A DNA stretch of 64,000 nt from assembly GCA_964016885.1 (NCBI GenBank), contig OZ024745.1:30814001-30878000 (forward strand). The letters run 5' to 3'. The position numbers and the translations under genes are program-made. This stretch comes from Eledone cirrhosa (Eukaryota). A model generated the notes under the pieces. The model saw nothing but the letters and a program-made list of their open reading frames with translations. It did no database searches and had not been told where the DNA came from. This document shows positions 6,741-61,884 of this stretch, one piece after another; positions within the stretch are counted from its first letter, which is position 1, and every line of letters begins with the position of its first letter.

Positions 6741-6783
6741 TTTATCGCTCGTATACAGGAAACTGACTGGTCAGTCTGCTGAT

Positions 6784-6857
6784 ATGCAAATCTGGCTAAT
6801 CGGTGGTTCTGCTAATATGCAGATCTGACTGATCAGCCAATCTGCTAATATGCAAAT
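6784..6857 (+). promoter_or_regulatory. Three tandem octamer-like motifs upstream of a hammerhead
   Basis: CTGCT(G/A)ATATGCA(A/G)AT repeated three times. Two contain a perfect ATGCAAAT (6784-6791, 6850-6857). Confidence 0.45.
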
Positions 6858-25168: not shown

Positions 25169-26050
25169 TTAACAGCGCTGCGATCGAATGTGGCTTTTTA
25201 GCCCAGCCAATGGTCTGAAATGTCTTGCACAGAATTGGCAAGCAAAACATTCACTGGGAATAGCCGGCTGTGGTTGGGGTTCGTGTACTTTTACAGGTCG
25301 TTTGAGCCCTCCTGCTGATTTACATTCTCTACCACATGCTTGGCAAGCATGATGAGTAGCATCTCCAACAGCAGCCTGGTAGTTAACCACTGGTCTCACT
25401 TTATGACTACGAAGATGACTTTCGAGTCCAGCTTTGCTGAGGCAGAGTCTCGCACAGCCGCTGCATGTTAGCGCCATAGGAGGACCTTCGCTGTCTGGAA
25501 ATGCAACAGTAATGCCCTTCCTCACATCCCTCTTTACTTCCTCGTATGCGATTCGAGAGGCATCAAAGGCAACTTTCCCCTCATATACAGTCTTTCTCCA
25601 TTTATTACAATCAGCAGCAACATTTTCCCATGTATCAGCAGAGATGTTAGCGTCTTTCAAAGAGGCTTTCAACGAATCCTTATACCTCTTTTTTGGTTTA
25701 TGTAGAGGTCGTTTTCCTTTAGCTAACTCTCCATAAAAGAGTTGTTTTGGTATTCTAGAATCTTTCATCCTGGCAAGGTGACGACTCCAACGGAGTGTTT
25801 GCTTAAGCACAAGAGCTTCTATACTGTCGCACAGAGAGCTTTCCAAAATCTCGACATCACTGATATGGTCTCTCCAGTGAACGCCATGGATCCGTCTGAG
25901 ACACATCTGGTGGAAACGCTCCAATTGTTTAAGGTGGTGTCGATATGTGACCCAGGTCTCGCAAGCATAAAGAAGAGAAGAGAGCACACATGCCTTGTAC
26001 ACCTTTACCTTTGTCTTCTTGCAGTCTCGCCGACTCCAGAGTCGCCTTTC
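25169..26050 (-). mobile_element. RTE/BovB-like LINE 3' end: RT thumb plus three C2H2 zinc fingers (5' truncated)
   Basis: KVKVYKACVLSSLLYACETW..ERFHQMCLRRI..LRWSRHLARMKDSRIPKQLFYGEL..KRYKDSLK, then CxxC..GLxSHxRSH three times (the middle one degenerate). The N-terminal ~20 aa of the ORF are microsatellite. Confidence 0.9.
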
Positions 26051-26136
26051 ATATATACATACATACATACATACATAACATAACATATATATATATATAT
26101 ATTCTCTTATATTCATACATACCTACATAACTACAT

Positions 26137-34242: not shown

Positions 34243-34566
34243 TGTGTGTGTGTGTGTGTGTGTGCGTGCGTTTGTTTGTTTGTGTGTGTATAAATACCGC
34301 GACACAATACTGTTCATTGTTACGGGCGTGCTAGGCAGACTTCTTACAGCAGTCCCAGTAACAAATACAAGGACACCACCAGTAATCACATCAATATAAG
34401 TCAATGGAATTAAACAAACTACACAGACGAAACGTGTATGAGTGAAACAGACAGTCGGTGATATCGTAGACAAACTACGACCACCCAGTGTAGGTATCTG
34501 TAGAATTATATAGGAAACAAAACGATTTTTATTGGAATCGAAGTTATATATATATATATATATATA

Positions 34567-37500
34567 TAAATGTAAGTATGCATGTATACGTACATACATA
34601 TATGTATACAGACGTACAGTAGCATGCACATATATATATATATATATACATATATACATACATATGCATACAGGTACACATACATATATGCACGTATCAG
34701 TTTAGCGGCGCTTATTATAACGTCGCTTTGTTCGTTTGTAAACAAACTGAAAAGCCTGAATTTATGCCATACGGTGTTAAGGCAACCACGTCACCTTTTT
34801 GTTCAACACTGACACAGGAACGATGTACTAGTTTCAAGCTTGTTAGCTATCATCAGCACCGTTTACCCATCTGCCAGATAGTTGAACGTTCGAAAGTATA
34901 TACTTTCCTTATGAAAATTAACGGCTGAGCAGCCTAATTTGCATATTGAGTGAGTTAAATCGGTCAGGCATACCGAAAACGATAAATTGAAACAAAATGA
35001 AAACGAAATTTCATTTCTCACTCTTAGTATGGCACTTACTTAAATGTAAGTATGCATGTATACGTACATACATATATGTATACAGACGTACAGTAGCATG
35101 CACATATATATATATATATATACATATATACATACATATGCATACAGGTACACATACATATATGCACGTATCAGTTTAGCGGCGCTTATTATAACGTCGC
35201 TTTGTTCGTTTGTAAACAAACTGAAAAGCCTGAATTTATGCCATACGGTGTTAAGGCAACCACGTCACCTTTTTGTTCAACACTGACACAGGAACGATGT
35301 ACTAGTTTCAAGCTTGTTAGCTATCATCAGCACCGTTTACCCATCTGCCAGATAGTTGAACGTTCGAAAGTATATACTTTCCTTATGAAAATTAACGGCT
35401 GAGCAGCCTAATTTGCATATTGAGTGAGTTAAATCGGTCAGGCATACCGAAAACGATAAATTGAAACAAAATGAAAACGAAATTTCATTTCTCACTCTTA
35501 GTATGGCACTTACTTAAATGTAAGTATGCATGTATACGTACATACATATATGTATACAGACGTACAGTAGCATGCACATATATATATATATATATACATA
35601 TATACATACATATGCATACAGGTACACATACATATATGCACGTATCAGTTTAGCGGCGCTTATTATAACGTCGCTTTGTTCGTTTGTAAACAAACTGAAA
35701 AGCCTGAATTTATGCCATACGGTGTTAAGGCAACCACGTCACCTTTTTGTTCAACACTGACACAGGAACGATGTACTAGTTTCAAGCTTGTTAGCTATCA
35801 TCAGCACCGTTTACCCATCTGCCAGATAGTTGAACGTTCGAAAGTATATACTTTCCTTATGAAAATTAACGGCTGAGCAGCCTAATTTGCATATTGAGTG
35901 AGTTAAATCGGTCAGGCATACCGAAAACGATAAATTGAAACAAAATGAAAACGAAATTTCATTTCTCACTCTTAGTATGGCACTTACTTAAATGTAAGTA
36001 TGCATGTATACGTACATACATATATGTATACAGACGTACAGTAGCATGCACATATATATATATATATATACATATATACATACATATGCATACAGGTACA
36101 CATACATATATGCACGTATCAGTTTAGCGGCGCTTATTATAACGTCGCTTTGTTCGTTTGTAAACAAACTGAAAAGCCTGAATTTATGCCATACGGTGTT
36201 AAGGCAACCACGTCACCTTTTTGTTCAACACTGACACAGGAACGATGTACTAGTTTCAAGCTTGTTAGCTATCATCAGCACCGTTTACCCATCTGCCAGA
36301 TAGTTGAACGTTCGAAAGTATATACTTTCCTTATGAAAATTAACGGCTGAGCAGCCTAATTTGCATATTGAGTGAGTTAAATCGGTCAGGCATACCGAAA
36401 ACGATAAATTGAAACAAAATGAAAACGAAATTTCATTTCTCACTCTTAGTATGGCACTTACTTAAATGTAAGTATGCATGTATACGTACATACATATATG
36501 TATACAGACGTACAGTAGCATGCACATATATATATATATATATACATATATACATACATATGCATACAGGTACACATACATATATGCACGTATCAGTTTA
36601 GCGGCGCTTATTATAACGTCGCTTTGTTCGTTTGTAAACAAACTGAAAAGCCTGAATTTATGCCATACGGTGTTAAGGCAACCACGTCACCTTTTTGTTC
36701 AACACTGACACAGGAACGATGTACTAGTTTCAAGCTTGTTAGCTATCATCAGCACCGTTTACCCATCTGCCAGATAGTTGAACGTTCGAAAGTATATACT
36801 TTCCTTATGAAAATTAACGGCTGAGCAGCCTAATTTGCATATTGAGTGAGTTAAATCGGTCAGGCATACCGAAAACGATAAATTGAAACAAAATGAAAAC
36901 GAAATTTCATTTCTCACTCTTAGTATGGCACTTACTTAAATGTAAGTATGCATGTATACGTACATACATATATGTATACAGACGTACAGTAGCATGCACA
37001 TATATATATATATATATACATATATACATACATATGCATACAGGTACACATACATATATGCACGTATCAGTTTAGCGGCGCTTATTATAACGTCGCTTTG
37101 TTCGTTTGTAAACAAACTGAAAAGCCTGAATTTATGCCATACGGTGTTAAGGCAACCACGTCACCTTTTTGTTCAACACTGACACAGGAACGATGTACTA
37201 GTTTCAAGCTTGTTAGCTATCATCAGCACCGTTTACCCATCTGCCAGATAGTTGAACGTTCGAAAGTATATACTTTCCTTATGAAAATTAACGGCTGAGC
37301 AGCCTAATTTGCATATTGAGTGAGTTAAATCGGTCAGGCATACCGAAAACGATAAATTGAAACAAAATGAAAACGAAATTTCATTTCTCACTCTTAGTAT
37401 GGCACTTACTTAAATGTAAGTATGCATGTATACGTACATACATATATGTATACAGACGTACAGTAGCATGCACATATATATATATATATATACATATATA

Positions 37501-37836
37501 CATACATATGCATACAGGTACACATACATATATGCACGTATCAGTTTAGCGGCGCTTATTATAACGTCGCTTTGTTCGTTTGTAAACAAACTGAAAAGCC
37601 TGAATTTATGCCATACGGTGTTAAGGCAACCACGTCACCTTTTTGTTCAACACTGACACAGGAACGATGTACTAGTTTCAAGCTTGTTAGCTATCATCAG
37701 CACCGTTTACCCATCTGCCAGATAGTTGAACGTTCGAAAGTATATACTTTCCTTATGAAAATTAACGGCTGAGCAGCCTAATTTGCATATTGAGTGAGTT
37801 AAATCGGTCAGGCATACCGAAAACGATAAATTGAAA
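34567..37836 (-). mobile_element. Left arm: ~6.9 tandem copies of a 474-bp hammerhead-containing unit (ribozyme on minus strand)
   Basis: Exact 474-bp period (ORF track repeats at 34582, 35056, 35530...). HHRs at 34819-34863, 35293-35337, 35767-35811, 36241-36285, 36715-36759, 37189-37233 and 37663-37707. Confidence 0.95.
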
Positions 37837-37888
37837 TTTGTTTCAATTTATCGTTTTCGGTATGCCTGACCGATTTAACTCACTCAAT

Positions 37889-37896
37889 ATGCAAAT
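37889..37896 (+). promoter_or_regulatory. Octamer motif ATGCAAAT, present in every 474-bp unit
   Basis: Perfect octamer starting 88 bp before CTGATGA. Context is conserved with 6847-6869. Confidence 0.45.
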
Positions 37897-37969
37897 TAGG
37901 CTGCTCAGCCGTTAATTTTCATAAGGAAAGTATATACTTTCGAACGTTCAACTATCTGGCAGATGGGTA

Positions 37970-38014
37970 AACGGTGCTGATGATAGCTAACAAGCTTGAA
38001 ACTAGTACATCGTT
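37970..38014 (+). ncRNA. Type I hammerhead ribozyme (representative of 12 copies)
   Basis: AACGGTG-CTGATGA-T-AGCT aaca AGCT-T-GAAA-CTAG-TA^CATCGTT. Helix I extends over 37946-38032 (ATGGG/CCTGT, CTGGC/GTCAG, GTTCAAC/GTTGAAC). Predicted cleavage after 38007. Confidence 0.88.
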
Positions 38015-40215
38015 CCTGTGTCAGTGTTGAACAAAAAGGTGACGTGGTTGCCTTAACACCGTATGGCATAAATTCAGGCTTTTCAGTTTGTTTACAAACG
38101 AACAAAGCGACGTTATAATAAGCGCCGCTAAACTGATACGTGCATATATGTATGTGTACCTGTATGCATATGTATGTATATATGTATATATATATATATA
38201 TATGTGCATGCTACTGTACGTCTGTATACATATATGTATGTACGTATACATGCATACTTACATTTAAGTAAGTGCCATACTAAGAGTGAGAAATGAAATT
38301 TCGTTTTCATTTTGTTTCAATTTATCGTTTTCGGTATGCCTGACCGATTTAACTCACTCAATATGCAAATTAGGCTGCTCAGCCGTTAATTTTCATAAGG
38401 AAAGTATATACTTTCGAACGTTCAACTATCTGGCAGATGGGTAAACGGTGCTGATGATAGCTAACAAGCTTGAAACTAGTACATCGTTCCTGTGTCAGTG
38501 TTGAACAAAAAGGTGACGTGGTTGCCTTAACACCGTATGGCATAAATTCAGGCTTTTCAGTTTGTTTACAAACGAACAAAGCGACGTTATAATAAGCGCC
38601 GCTAAACTGATACGTGCATATATGTATGTGTACCTGTATGCATATGTATGTATATATGTATATATATATATATATATGTGCATGCTACTGTACGTCTGTA
38701 TACATATATGTATGTACGTATACATGCATACTTACATTTAAGTAAGTGCCATACTAAGAGTGAGAAATGAAATTTCGTTTTCATTTTGTTTCAATTTATC
38801 GTTTTCGGTATGCCTGACCGATTTAACTCACTCAATATGCAAATTAGGCTGCTCAGCCGTTAATTTTCATAAGGAAAGTATATACTTTCGAACGTTCAAC
38901 TATCTGGCAGATGGGTAAACGGTGCTGATGATAGCTAACAAGCTTGAAACTAGTACATCGTTCCTGTGTCAGTGTTGAACAAAAAGGTGACGTGGTTGCC
39001 TTAACACCGTATGGCATAAATTCAGGCTTTTCAGTTTGTTTACAAACGAACAAAGCGACGTTATAATAAGCGCCGCTAAACTGATACGTGCATATATGTA
39101 TGTGTACCTGTATGCATATGTATGTATATATGTATATATATATATATATATGTGCATGCTACTGTACGTCTGTATACATATATGTATGTACGTATACATG
39201 CATACTTACATTTAAGTAAGTGCCATACTAAGAGTGAGAAATGAAATTTCGTTTTCATTTTGTTTCAATTTATCGTTTTCGGTATGCCTGACCGATTTAA
39301 CTCACTCAATATGCAAATTAGGCTGCTCAGCCGTTAATTTTCATAAGGAAAGTATATACTTTCGAACGTTCAACTATCTGGCAGATGGGTAAACGGTGCT
39401 GATGATAGCTAACAAGCTTGAAACTAGTACATCGTTCCTGTGTCAGTGTTGAACAAAAAGGTGACGTGGTTGCCTTAACACCGTATGGCATAAATTCAGG
39501 CTTTTCAGTTTGTTTACAAACGAACAAAGCGACGTTATAATAAGCGCCGCTAAACTGATACGTGCATATATGTATGTGTACCTGTATGCATATGTATGTA
39601 TATATGTATATATATATATATATATGTGCATGCTACTGTACGTCTGTATACATATATGTATGTACGTATACATGCATACTTACATTTAAGTAAGTGCCAT
39701 ACTAAGAGTGAGAAATGAAATTTCGTTTTCATTTTGTTTCAATTTATCGTTTTCGGTATGCCTGACCGATTTAACTCACTCAATATGCAAATTAGGCTGC
39801 TCAGCCGTTAATTTTCATAAGGAAAGTATATACTTTCGAACGTTCAACTATCTGGCAGATGGGTAAACGGTGCTGATGATAGCTAACAAGCTTGAAACTA
39901 GTACATCGTTCCTGTGTCAGTGTTGAACAAAAAGGTGACGTGGTTGCCTTAACACCGTATGGCATAAATTCAGGCTTTTCAGTTTGTTTACAAACGAACA
40001 AAGCGACGTTATAATAAGCGCCGCTAAACTGATACGTGCATATATGTATGTGTACCTGTATGCATATGTATGTATATATGTATATATATATATATATATG
40101 TGCATGCTACTGTACGTCTGTATACATATATGTATGTACGTATACATGCATACTTACATTTAAGTAAGTGCCATACTAAGAGTGAGAAATGAAATTTCGT
40201 TTTCATTTTGTTTCA

Positions 40216-40261
<46 letters not shown>

Positions 40262-40877
40262 GAGAGGTATAGAGATTGTTTTAGCAAGAAGCTAACGGCA
40301 TTCTATAACATATATGCGACTATAACGTCAAGATGGGAAAAGTAGTTAACGAAAGATTTAGGAAAAATAACTCAAACTCATCTCAAAAAGAGAATCAGGA
40401 TATAAATTCATCCACAGAATTTAGTAAAATCCAGGGAAAAATCTATAGACCTTTAACTCATGATAAAATAAAGTTTGAAACACTTATCCTTCAATTTGGA
40501 ATAACATCAAATGCTCTGTATAGTCTTAAAAGACTATTTCATGAAAACTTTCAGTGGAGATGGTCACGGTTGGATTTCATTCATCAGCAGAGCTCAACAG
40601 AAACCAGGGCTCTCACAGTAGTATAATCCGAAAAAGGGAATTCTAAAACTGGCTAGTTCGCCTTCGTGTGTATTTATGAAAAAGCACATGAGGAAAAAAC
40701 CGGGGCTAGTGACGTCAGGATGGAAGTGAATTTTTATTTACAAGAAATAGCAGTCAAATACATTCTGAAAAAAACTCTACAAAGGAGTTCAGCAAAATAG
40801 CAATAATTATCACAGTTTTTATGAAAAAAACCGGGATTAGTCACAGATAGTTTAAGCACTCTAGGAAAAGAATCCGA

Positions 40878-40934
<57 letters not shown>

Positions 40935-42796: not shown

Positions 42797-42953
<157 letters not shown>

Positions 42954-43252
42954 TATCCCCCTTGCTTCTGCCGGGCACCGCCGGGTGGTGTTAGCTGCCA
43001 GTGTGTTATTCATAGCTATGGTTTTCTAAATGTTTATTTATAAACATACCGTATTTCTTTAGAAACTCGAAATTCAAATACATAGTTGTATATAACTATG
43101 TTAGAAGCTAAATCCTAATTCTATTCTATTATAAGTTGTGCCAACTTATATAGCTTCATATGCACATGAGATAATTATCTCATTTACACAGACGAAAAAA
43201 ACTATATATTTTCGCCTGTTTTCAAAGTCGGGCAGTTGCAAGAACGGGAGAG

Positions 43253-43296
43253 ATCGTCCTGACGAGAACCAGTCGAGTTCGAAATGCATCGACTAT
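43253..43296 (+). ncRNA. Second copy of the same hammerhead, 343 bp downstream
   Basis: Identical core. 3' strand of helix I is GACTAT (one mismatch). Confidence 0.88.
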
Positions 43297-43644
43297 TGTC
43301 CACAATGCGTCTGCCGGACACTGCCTGGTGGCGTTAGCCAGCAAGACAAGATCACAAACGAGGATGTGCTTGGAAGATCCATTGCCAACCGTCAACAAGG
43401 GCAAAAAGACAGAAGAATTCAGCTACCAGGGAATGTCCTACTGCAAAATCAACAACAAAATTTATAAAAATAACAACAACAACAACAACAGCAATGACAA
43501 CAACAAATACAATGGTAACAACAACAGCAGCAATAGCAACAACATCAGCAATAGCAATGATGTCAAAATCACAATAACAAGTGAACCTGTTTCCAGTAAA
43601 GAAACACATGATAAACAGAACTATACAAATATTAACTTCTCCTA

Positions 43645-44460
43645 TCCCCCCTCCTCACTTCACTGCCCTATTACAATCTAATAAGAACACCTCTACCTGG
43701 AGATTAACATGCTAGAAATAGCAACCAAATCTCCCCTCCTCACTTCACTGCCCTATTACAATCCAATAAGAACACCTCTACCTGGAGATTAACATGCTAG
43801 AAATAGCAATCAAATCTCCTCTCATCACTTCACTGCCCTATTACAATCCAATAAGGACACATCTACCTGGAGATTAACATGCTAGAAATAGCAACCAAAT
43901 CTCCTCTCATCACTTCACTGCCCTATTACAATCCAATAAGGACACTTCTACCTGGAGATTAACATGCTAGAAATAGCAACCAAATCTCCCCTCATCACTT
44001 CACTGCCCTATTACAATCCAATAAGAACACCTCTACCTGGAGATTAACATGCTAGAAATAGCAATCAAATCTCCTCTCATCACTTCACTGCCCTATTACA
44101 ATCCAATAAGAACACCTCTACCTGGAGATTAACATGCTAGAAATAGCAACCAAATCTCCCCTCATCACTTCACTGCCCTATTACAATCCAATAAGAACAC
44201 CTCTACCTGGAGATTAACATGCTAGAAATAGCAACCAAATCTCCCTCCTCACTTCACTGCCCTATTACAATCCAATAAGAACACCTCTACCTGGAGATTA
44301 ACATGCTAGAAATAGCAACCAAATCTCCCCTCCTCACTTCACTGTGCTATTACAACCCAACAAGGACACTTCTACCTGGAGATTGACATGCTGGAAATAA
44401 CAACCAAATCACTTCACCGTTCTATTACAATCCAACAAGGATTGCCTGGAGAATTGACAT
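43645..44460. repeat. 85-bp minisatellite, ~9.5 copies
   Basis: CACTTCACTGCCCTATTACAATCC recurs at 43741, 43826, 43911, 43996, 44081 and 44166, degenerating at the right end. Confidence 0.95.
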
Positions 44461-58849: not shown

Positions 58850-59900
58850 AGGCCTTCTCAAAAGTGTTCCTTACTTGACCCTCTGCAACAAGGCACTTCT
58901 CGTCATATACCTAGTTCTTCTCTTCAATGAGCTTGTTGATTACAGCGTCATTGTCAACAATCCAATCTTGGTAGTGTGTCTTCTTAAGACCGAATAGACC
59001 AACCCAAGCATTGTAAACAAGTATTTTGATCTGATTCCGAGTTCCACCAAAGACAATGTTCTCGAGTTCACTATGAAGAGCAACTCAAATGTGCTTTATC
59101 ACTTGTACCCTGCTACCCTGTTTCTTCTGATCTGCACCTTCATCTTGCCACGGACAAGTTTGTGGTCTGTACCACATTTATCACCACGCATTACTTTTAC
59201 GGAACAAATATTCTGGATGTTTCTTTTTCTAGTGATGATATCATCCAAGATGTGTCTGCACGTAGATCCTTGGTGTATCCATGTTGCCTTGTAGGTATCT
59301 TTTTGTTGAAAGAAAGTATTGCGCATGACCAACTCAAACTCAGTGCATAGTTACAATAGAAGATCATTGCATTCATCCTGCCCTTGCCATGAGGTCTTAA
59401 AACATGCCATGTGTTGTGGTCACTTCCCACACGTGCATTGAAATCTCCAAGCAACAATATATTCTCTGCGTGTATAATCGTTGTTATACAGCCTTCAAAA
59501 TATTGGTAAAAAGCTATAATTGATTCCTTACTACTATTTAAGGTAGGGACATACACTGAAATGACAGTTATGTAATATCCTCTTGAAAGAGGAACACTCA
59601 GATGCATAATTTGATCCCCAATACTTTCTGGTTGTTCCAGCCACATAGTAACCTCTGTCCGGAGAGCAAAACCTTTTCCTCCACCCCTTTTCACCCCATT
59701 TGGTTTACCTTTCCAGAAGAACGTATAACCAGCACCTCTTTCTGAAAGATGACGAAGAAGAGTTTCAAGGAGAGCAGTTATATCAATATTACACCTGCTC
59801 AATTCTCTGGATAAAAAAACGAGTTCTGACTTCTAGATTTGAGGATGATTCCCTGTCAATATGTGTTCTAGTATTCCATGTAGCAACATACAATGATTCT
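58850..59900 (-). pseudogene. RTE LINE APE endonuclease region, frameshifted
   Basis: ATWNTR..IDITALLET..GAGYTFFWKG..ISVYVPT..LLLGDFNARVG..NTFFQQ..ATWIH..DHKLV. Confidence 0.9.
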
Positions 59901-59982: not shown

Positions 59983-60585
59983 CAAATATGACTGGAAAGA
60001 ACTTGTGTATATGTATATTTGTGTCTCCGTGTATATATTATACAATCATTCATAATCTATTTACCAGTGTTTACGTAATAAGATTTACATTTATACGAGT
60101 ATATTTCTCTACATGTATTCTAATAACTTCGTATATATTTGAATAACTCTTATCTTTATATATTTCATGTTTCGTGTTTCTAGGGACAATCTTTGGAGTT
60201 TAGCAGCTGTCAAAACCAACATTTCAACTGTGTTATCATTGTTTTCTCTTGAGCCAAGCAAGTATAAAACTGGATGTAAATAGGACTTACACTAACCACC
60301 AATCACTCCTACAGCGACATCACTCTATTCCACATATATATTGAATTTGATAATAATATACTCATTGTTATGGTGGTCGCCTCACGTCATACATTGTTTT
60401 TGACGTCGTAACTCCTGCCGTGCTACAAATACTTCTCAAACATCGAATATATTTCTTCATCACTAAATCTTTTAAAAACATTTTTATCGAATAAATCGCC
60501 AACATTTTTGCCAAAGGATCTTGGACATGAGATTTTGGACTATCAATTATTTTAGTTTTAATAGTTTATATATAATTGATTCACT

Positions 60586-61732
60586 ATGAATCCTGAACAA
60601 AGACATATCCCAAATTTGCGTTGTTTTGATAACTCAAATACGGAGATAGCTTCCGGCAGTAAAGATACCAACCATTCTGTTGCATTACTATACTCTGGTA
60701 AACTATCATGTTTGTCAAGGAAAATATTCCGAAGGACGAAACTTCGTCAAGCCTTAAGCAAAAGAATTAACACTTCTAATCAAATATCCCGCAACTCATT
60801 TCATTTGTGTCTGCTGGTCTTTTTATATCTATTACAACACACTTCAGCGACAGAGTGTTCTTTCATGGATGGCAAATGTACTTATAACATACGTCTCGCT
60901 CCACCTCAACCGGCGGCAGAAGGATCTACTGGAGGCGGAGATCAATGTAAACCTTACGCCCCGGCAAATATGAGACAATTCAGTGGCACACAAGAAAGCC
61001 AGAATGATTACGCACAAAAAATGACAACTATAGTAAAAGATTTTGATGTCATTAAAGATGATCATGAAAATCGTATCAAAGAACTGGAAAACTATATTAG
61101 AAAAAGTTTATCTAGAGGCGAAGAATCCGACGTGATGAAAGTGGCCGGTAATATAAAAGAGAAGATCAGGCAAGGTTCCAGTTCTGAATCAGGTGGCGTA
61201 AACGAATACGGAGTAACCGGTATTAAATTTGACAATACTGAAGACAATTTGATTACAAAACTCCACAGGCAGTTTTCAGCGATACGAGAACTCAATCGAC
61301 AAAAATCACAGTCGTTACGCGTGATACATTACAGGTTGAACGAAACTCGCCAAAAGTTAACCGATACACAAAACAACCTGCTGTCGACCACAAATCAACT
61401 TTTACAAGCAGAAGAAACTCTAAATAATTTGCAAGATGACAAGTATATTTTACAAAACCAACTGAAAGACAGGAACGAGAGACTAGAGCGAGCTGAGAAA
61501 CGTGCAGATGCGTTAGAAAAGAAAAATAAAGAAACAGATGAGAAATTATTGACACTTATTCGATCTGAGAACCTTCTAAAAGAAGAAATGTACACGGCTC
61601 AATTTAAGCTGAACGAAACTGAAAAGTTGTTAGAAAACGCTCGAAATCAGTATCGCCAATTGGATGTAGATTTTGTTCGTCTTATTGGAGAAATCGGCAC
61701 AAGAGAGAAACAACTGAAACAGTGCTATAAAG
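60586..61732 (+). CDS. Large coding exon of a secreted or type II membrane coiled-coil protein (angiopoietin-like N-terminal architecture); downstream exons not seen
   Basis: Non-repetitive 382-codon frame. Hydrophobic FHLCLLVFLYLL, then ECSFMDGKCTYNIRL, then long heptad-rich K/E/Q/L region. Donor AAG|GTAAGA after 61732 (phase 1). Possible acceptor TTTCTAG|G at 60183. Confidence 0.8.
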
Positions 61733-61884
61733 GTAAGACATTCATAAATTTCACAACTAATTGTTTTCTTGCAGGCAGAAACTACGGTAACGCTGTAAAA
61801 TTGGTATAAAAACAGTGTGTGTATGTATGTATGTATGTATGTATGTATGTATGTATGTATGTATGTATGTATATATGTATGTAT

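Follow-up and report, generated by a model that had tools for sequence, protein, structure and literature searches.

A very young two-armed retrozyme insertion in the genome of Eledone cirrhosa and the Penelope-like footprint at its ends

Metazoan non-long-terminal-repeat (non-LTR) retrozymes of coral, mussel and axolotl consist of tandem units that are low in GC, do not code for protein and carry a single type I hammerhead each, and they occur in thousands of copies in genomes that also hold Penelope-like elements (PLEs). Circular RNAs have been shown for these retrozymes, and PLE-driven copying of the circles has been proposed (Cervera and de la Pena 2020, PMC7229834; Li, Clavereau and Pollet 2026, 10.64898/2026.07.22.740005). 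All of this is published, but the entry of animal retrozymes into DNA through PLE copying of circles is proposed, not demonstrated, in the literature examined. In this study, a hammerhead-bearing array was analysed in a 64,000-nucleotide stretch of the genome of the cephalopod Eledone cirrhosa (assembly GCA_964016885.1, contig OZ024745.1, positions 30,814,001 to 30,878,000); this whole stretch is called the window. A literature search, which reached few subscription papers and none of the supplements of Li et al., yielded no description of retrozymes in cephalopods and none of retrozyme insertions with two arms and a tail; the terms hammerhead, ribozyme and retrozyme have no occurrence in the accessible text of PMC13282606.

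The window family likewise consists of such units and is present in thousands of copies beside PLEs, and its hammerhead has a U-U at the base of helix II, as does axolotl HHR_Amex2. Newt satellite 2 is similarly built of tandem hammerhead units, which cut as dimers there. Circles have been demonstrated for the published families and are predicted for the window family. Its unit of 474 nt, which an earlier note on this sequence had placed on the long side for such elements, lies above the approximately 170-400 nt given in PMC7229834, but inside the range of 51-972 bp reported by Li et al. for family consensus lengths. The present insertions also differ from those in PMC7229834 in their (TA)n target, their two fixed ends and their head-to-head pairs of arms; the accessible text of that paper contains neither 'inverted' nor 'target site' (0 occurrences each). 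Li et al. described tandem growth by local amplification and PLE terminal-repeat relatives in Xenopus, whereas none was found here at 68 places with PLEs.

The evidence supports reading the array (Table 1) as a single, very young insertion of a non-LTR retrozyme, a repeat that is abundant, does not code for protein and carries a hammerhead. It lies inside a (TA)n tract as two head-to-head arms, with 12 hammerheads and no differences among the units. Each arm repeats every 474 bp with 0 mismatches at lag 474, and the two arms correspond exactly to one single unit sequence, including the internal TA tract, which spans 90 in 12 of 12 units. Taking 37837 as unit position 1, the left arm has its outer (3') end at unit position 430, termed the short end, and its inner end at unit position 5; the outer (3') end of the right arm is at unit position 15 (equivalent to 489), termed the long end. 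The centre forms a perfect palindrome at 35456-40221, with 2,381-bp arms and a 4-nt loop. The GC content of the unit is about 36%, the longest ATG-started frame in the array encodes 60 low-complexity amino acids, and no frame with the reverse transcriptase (RT) and GIY-YIG endonuclease of an autonomous PLE was found in the unit. The flank outside the left (TA)n remnant is single-copy among the scored candidates. These results bear out the exact units, the equal (TA)n length in all copies and the lack of a credible reading frame reported in the earlier note. Its 12-copy array stands as 12 units with a hammerhead, but not as one tandem, since the units form two inverted arms of 6.90 and 5.03 units. 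The earlier note did not recognise this inversion, the two fixed PLE-type ends, the (TA)n target or the thousands of dispersed copies.

The retrozyme family is abundant in the genome. A 30-nt hammerhead core had 10,692 genomic matches and its reversed control had 0, so the motif is not due to chance; a relaxed core pattern had 27,760 matches. The dispersed copies range from monomers to multimers, with identities from 100% down to about 76% and with some arrays of dozens of units. The first 100 core matches formed 54 clusters, comprising 27 single units, 11 same-strand tandems, 15 head-to-head pairs and 1 other, so that 15 of the 16 two-strand clusters were head to head. These clusters were picked by an intact hammerhead core on one chromosome, a choice that excludes copies of cut monomers. 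Scaled up very roughly, the genome would hold about 5,800 insertions. When contigs of four public sequencing runs of unspecified kind were compared with the unit, X1 and X5 had many variants and X4 and X6 one contig each, at a depth of 6-7, a pattern that allows no interpretation. Among the sequencing runs searched, no RNA data set was listed as containing the unit, which is evidence neither way.

Every one of the 12 units contains a complete type I hammerhead, and its predicted cut follows A38007, the position named in the earlier note. Stem I of the motif has 7 bp, stem II a U-U plus 4 bp, and stem III, capped by a palindromic loop, 2 bp. The Rfam hammerhead scan proposed earlier gave no call at the curated level; the best match was Hammerhead_HH9 at 18.5 bits (gathering score 52, E 0.032), and Hammerhead_1 was absent from the listing because clan overlap retains the best match only. 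In an Rfam scan of 33-42 kb, the 150 rows listed out of 200 were microRNA models, and these were rejected as matches to TA-rich or palindromic DNA, all below the gathering score. Covariance among genomic copies was found in 11 haplotypes hand-picked from the window family and its sister families: five stem pairs had double changes, a number reached in 0 of 500 shuffles, while slid controls gave no more than 3 pairs, and the hammerhead core varied at one position only. The terms retrozyme and very young are thus upheld by a covarying hammerhead, the genomic cores and the identity of the window units. Hammerheads that cleave as dimers are known by their short palindromic helix III (Cervera and de la Pena 2014, PMC4209133), and cleavage of the present motif is therefore expected mainly in dimers; a double hammerhead folds at -22.2 kcal/mol, against 2 x -8.1 kcal/mol for two single ones. 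Self-cleavage of the transcript is a prediction from the modelled fold.

The outer ends of the insertions fall at two fixed unit positions. Among 59 ends in 40 loci chosen by position, 24 lie at unit position 15 and 21 at unit position 430, with 13 others within 8 nt and 1 elsewhere; the two positions (430 and 489, the latter being position 15 of the next unit) are 59 nt apart. At least 6 nt of TA is joined directly to 42 of the 59 ends. Two-ended insertions make up 24 of the 54 clusters, and in 23 of these 24 a script found a short end paired with a long one (p 3e-6 if the two were chosen independently); the remaining cluster, L108, also has a short and a long end on inspection by eye. The window array follows the same rule.

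This build is the footprint known from PLEs with an endonuclease. PLE insertions often have an inverted 5'-truncated copy, a 30-40-bp tail at one end and a bias towards microsatellites (Craig et al. 2021, PMC8557442). In an Anolis PLE, reverse transcription starts at two adjacent internal sites, and the tail corresponds to the sequence lying between them; the protein of this PLE, predicted to be a dimer, cleaves both strands of AT-rich DNA and extends them (Frangieh et al. 2024, PMC11167929). An inverted 5'-truncated copy, a one-end tail and tandem units are common to PLEs with an endonuclease and the window array, as are an AT-rich or microsatellite target and a hammerhead predicted to act as a dimer (PMC8557442, PMC11167929, PMC4209133). 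In the E. cirrhosa genome 10,596 GIY-YIG candidates were found. The long frames of coding PLEs here contain RT and GIY-YIG, and their cysteine linker is of the Neptune/Nematis type, an assignment made without a tree. In coding PLE family A, all three two-ended copies examined have the short and long head-to-head build on (TA)n, with a 64-nt tail, and the tail of family C is about 40 nt. The short and long ends on (TA)n and the same build in coding PLEs therefore support mobilisation by PLEs well, and we consider it very probable that PLE machinery made the retrozyme insertions. The window element differs from the coding PLEs in that it lacks a reading frame, has several whole units per arm and has a tail of 59 nt instead of 30-40. 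Its hammerhead is also the canonical C3-G8 form, unlike the U3-A8 of several coding PLE families here; PLEs with an N-terminal endonuclease are said to lack canonical hammerheads (PMC8557442). A hammerhead-like motif with U3-A8 in place of C3-G8 and a palindromic helix III was observed in coding PLE 3' regions at L086, L103, L105, L173, L176, L183, L192, L199 and L204; in family A it lies about 80 nt before the short end.

Two other origins of the array can be weighed on this evidence. The earlier note had allowed for a retroviroid-like element, and the array could be an integrated copy of an infectious viroid-like RNA. Its size, its hammerhead and its strong predicted folding (z -7.7) would suit such an RNA, the folding score being due largely to the TA-rich tract. 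However, the ribozyme is present on one polarity of the unit only, and the thousands of dispersed copies, diverged subfamilies, PLE ends and conserved octamer are the behaviour of a mobile element of the host genome; this origin is scarcely credible. Secondly, a short two-armed insertion could have been amplified later by unequal crossing-over, or the array could be an assembly artefact from a fold-back read or a collapsed consensus. In favour of this are the perfect palindrome and the existence of satellite-length arrays with higher-order patterns (L120, L123-L125); the palindrome centre was bridged by no public-run contig among those listed, which is uninformative. Yet the flanks differ, both outer ends follow the short and long rule, both arms are multimeric, and the assembly preserves 2-nt tract differences inside other arrays. 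A fold-back read is unlikely because it would mirror the flank and break the end rule, and this second explanation as a whole seems most improbable.

The arms also bear on which RNA was copied. If cut monomers were the template, arms should stop at unit position 172, at most 318 nt from the start. The inner ends of the arms are instead spread over the unit (2 of 102 at positions 168-174), and 275 units run through the cut. Since the 54-cluster sample favours intact cores, arm starts were also counted genome-wide: the cut had 11 and a control site 23, or 18 and 30 when TA-joined starts were counted. Unit junctions were unchanged in 133 of 141 cases, without indels. Cut linear monomers copied with template jumping, or two arms made from two RNA molecules, are therefore very improbable: starts show no excess at the cut, the 141 units have no junction indels, and private variants span both arms. 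One sister copy with 100% identity (L146) does start 1-3 nt from the cut, and in favour of two RNAs stands a head-to-head join of a PLE end and a retrozyme arm at L054.

Variation within insertions is lower than among them, with a mean unit difference of 1.3-1.7% within an insertion and 4.2% between loci. Twenty-nine rare variants in 21 loci are common to all units that cover them, and 15 of these span both arms; of the other variants, 284 are confined to a single unit and 30 are partly shared, none of the latter being mirrored between arms (judged by eye, in few informative loci). Seven young arrays (the window, L049, L050, L053, L061, L119 and L121) have 0-0.3% internal diversity, and some of them are 1-3% distant from the window unit; four other arrays have 0.5-1.4%. 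The long arrays that might have served as mothers have an internal diversity of 1.1-4.0% and are at least 1.8% from the window unit. The length of the TA tract is often uniform and specific to the insertion (90 x 12 in the window, 88 x 4, 122 x 3). Arm starts without a pile-up at the cut, and one haplotype in both arms of young insertions, favour rolling reverse transcription of one circle; together with the junctions they lead us to infer the rolling-circle reverse transcription that the earlier note had envisaged. Repeated copying of one circle is the simplest account of the arm data. A>G changes make up 9 of the 29 shared variants and 29 of the 284 single-unit variants (Fisher p 0.004). RNA-editing scars in the window family were considered and rejected, since A>G and T>C counts of 9 and 5 (p 0.29) show no strand bias.

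Taken together, we regard it as probable that the window array is a young retrozyme insertion made in (TA)n by a borrowed PLE RT-endonuclease through two-site priming, probably with several rounds on a circle. In such a course, tandem units would be transcribed, possibly from an internal octamer-type promoter, and adjacent hammerheads are predicted to pair as a double hammerhead and release 474-nt monomers. By analogy with other retrozymes, a host ligase would close the monomers, and the circle would persist because a hammerhead whose helix III has just 2 bp cleaves inefficiently on its own. The observed ends suggest that a PLE dimer would then break (TA)n, with two complementary DNAs (cDNAs) on opposite sides of the break, the first beginning at the short site, the second at the long site. 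Both polymerases may read through the ligated cut site and go round the circle a variable number of times, and the joining of the far ends of the two cDNAs would yield the head-to-head arms that are seen. More tentatively, a PLE dimer may grip one small, host-encoded RNA circle at two sites 59 nt apart and drive two reverse transcriptases around it, one from each side of a DNA break, so that tandem arrays and palindromes of several kilobases would arise in one step, and the circle may mimic the PLE start signal without deriving from any PLE terminal repeat now in the genome.

Several observations weigh against this account. One kind of end, or unpaired ends, was found in 27 of the 54 clusters, and no end in 3. 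The retrozyme tail of 59 nt exceeds the 30-40 nt described for PLEs, its similarity to that of family A was not significant (254 of 2000 shuffles), and the 68 distinct GIY-YIG places yielded no PLE terminal repeat with homology to the unit. As for the ribozyme, four of the five pairs with double changes rest on one distant 466-nt family, the double hammerhead is not the minimum-energy dimer (another dimer fold has -27.7 kcal/mol), and eight of nine Xenopus retrozyme dimers did not cleave in vitro. L011, L113, L122 and L162 have an internal diversity of 0.7-1.4% (1.2% for L162, a partial sequence), and TA tracts in L011 vary from 88 to 132. Part of the evidence would equally suit PLE two-site priming on uncut, linear read-through RNA of another young homogeneous array, with the hammerhead idle in copying. 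In vitro, the Anolis PLE chiefly used unprocessed RNA and did not need hammerhead cleavage (PMC11167929), precise junctions and homogeneity fit equally well with a new mother array, and arrays of dozens of units exist. However, the diversity of the long arrays and their distance from the window unit speak against read-through, as does the lack of mirroring among the 30 partly shared variants noted above. Among 40 of the 66 scored candidates, no mother array of several identical units turned up; the nearest sister there was a single partial unit, and these searches give lower bounds. Daughter arrays, moreover, could not outgrow their mothers. Read-through thus appears unlikely, and repeated copying of a circle is retained.

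The partner PLE was searched for among 150 scored GIY-YIG candidates of the 10,596, in 75 stretches at the 68 distinct places; about 13 of the 20 clusters listed were genuine by eye. Each unit match at these places was a nested retrozyme copy. One candidate, L097, had appeared to be a PLE with the unit in its 3' region and was rejected, as an older copy is nested there in a (TA)n flank. PLE family A is a lead only, by its tail length and by L054:952-1620, where a retrozyme arm and the long end of a family A copy meet head to head. This join is possibly a two-RNA chimera or a nested insertion, and independent insertions into one TA tract would also explain it. Non-autonomous PLE derivatives with multicopy head-to-tail insertions are likewise described for Chlamys PLEs such as MRC1, although the 3' end of that type resembles the autonomous partner (PMC8557442), a likeness not found for the window unit at the 68 places.

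A conserved sequence at unit positions 53-60 is a candidate internal promoter element. It is 97.5% identical in copies with less than 89% identity overall, compared with 69-88% for 20-nt bins over positions 1-100; it lies 111 nt 5' of the predicted cut and is retained in the distant 466-nt family. We take this sequence to be an octamer motif. The promoter of newt satellite 2 has an octamer. That promoter is reported to be internal and of the small nuclear RNA type, as cited in PMC2220036.

Table 1. Coordinates of the retrozyme array and its parts in the window
Feature	Position	Strand	Basis
Left (TA)n target remnant	34545..34566		sequence
Left arm, 6.90 units, 7 hammerheads	34567..37836	ribozyme sense on -	sequence
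Right arm, 5.03 units, 5 hammerheads	37837..40221	ribozyme sense on +	sequence
4-nt palindrome loop; arms joined without overlap	37837..37840		sequence
Type I hammerhead, predicted cut after A38007 (unit position 171)	37970..38014	+	sequence, folding
Further hammerheads	38444, 38918, 39392, 39866	+	sequence
Further hammerheads	34819, 35293, 35767, 36241, 36715, 37189, 37663	-	sequence
Predicted 474-nt monomer or circle, cut to cut	38008..38481	+	inferred from predicted cut sites
TA-rich self-complementary tract, long predicted hairpin, most length-variable part of the family	38136..38266	+	sequence, folding
Candidate internal promoter element: octamer motif present once in each unit (positions 53-60)	38363..38370	+	conservation
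59-nt tail, short end to long end, at the right end of the array only	40163..40221	+	sequence
Right (TA)n target remnant, common to the unrelated young element at 40259-40879	40222..40258		sequence

With their exact start sites, their target and the pairing of one short with one long end, the insertions offer rules that can be tested in vitro. They suggest that two subunits, one on each side of a break, share the work and that the PLE tail is the trace of this, and that ribozyme satellites can arise in one copying event rather than by slow crossing-over. The window element is a single member of a family of thousands, and nothing here points to a host function.

Related arrays and arms were observed elsewhere in the genome. 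L123-L125 (G000:C1636, about 296-321 kb) form a satellite-length array of about 50 window units, L120 and L165 (G000:C4, 305.63-305.65 Mb) another of at least 39 units, and L160 has at least 14 units. These arrays are internally diverse, some with higher-order variant patterns. The distant sister family of 466 nt, whose stem II is of the canonical G-C type, was found at L124:6470-9900, L163, L152 and L197; its octamer region and hammerhead are conserved, and it too has head-to-head arms. At L050:1206-4660, short-ended and long-ended arms stand tail to tail, 1.25 kb apart, either from two separate events or from one event with inverted target DNA.

Other features of the window lie outside the array. 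At 40259-40879, adjoining the right (TA)n, is a second very young TA-targeted element with a unit of about 630 nt, partial tandems and one fixed end; it had 1,212 candidates, the best 40 at about 100% identity, with no Rfam match and no convincing hammerhead. Two copies of a different type I hammerhead, 342 nt apart, were found at 42909-42953 and 43251-43295 (+); they have a 1-bp helix III and a palindromic tetraloop, and represent another retrozyme-like family. Repeats of 33 nt, each with an octamer-like motif, occur at 6775-6857. A 409-aa open frame at 60580-61809 (+) is coiled-coil-rich in appearance, with no Pfam family and atlas hits below 0.9. LINE-like fragments lie at 59197-59832 (-), with an endonuclease match, and at 25169-26122 (-), as judged by eye, and an 85-bp minisatellite with 9 copies and 95% matches occupies 43644-44410.

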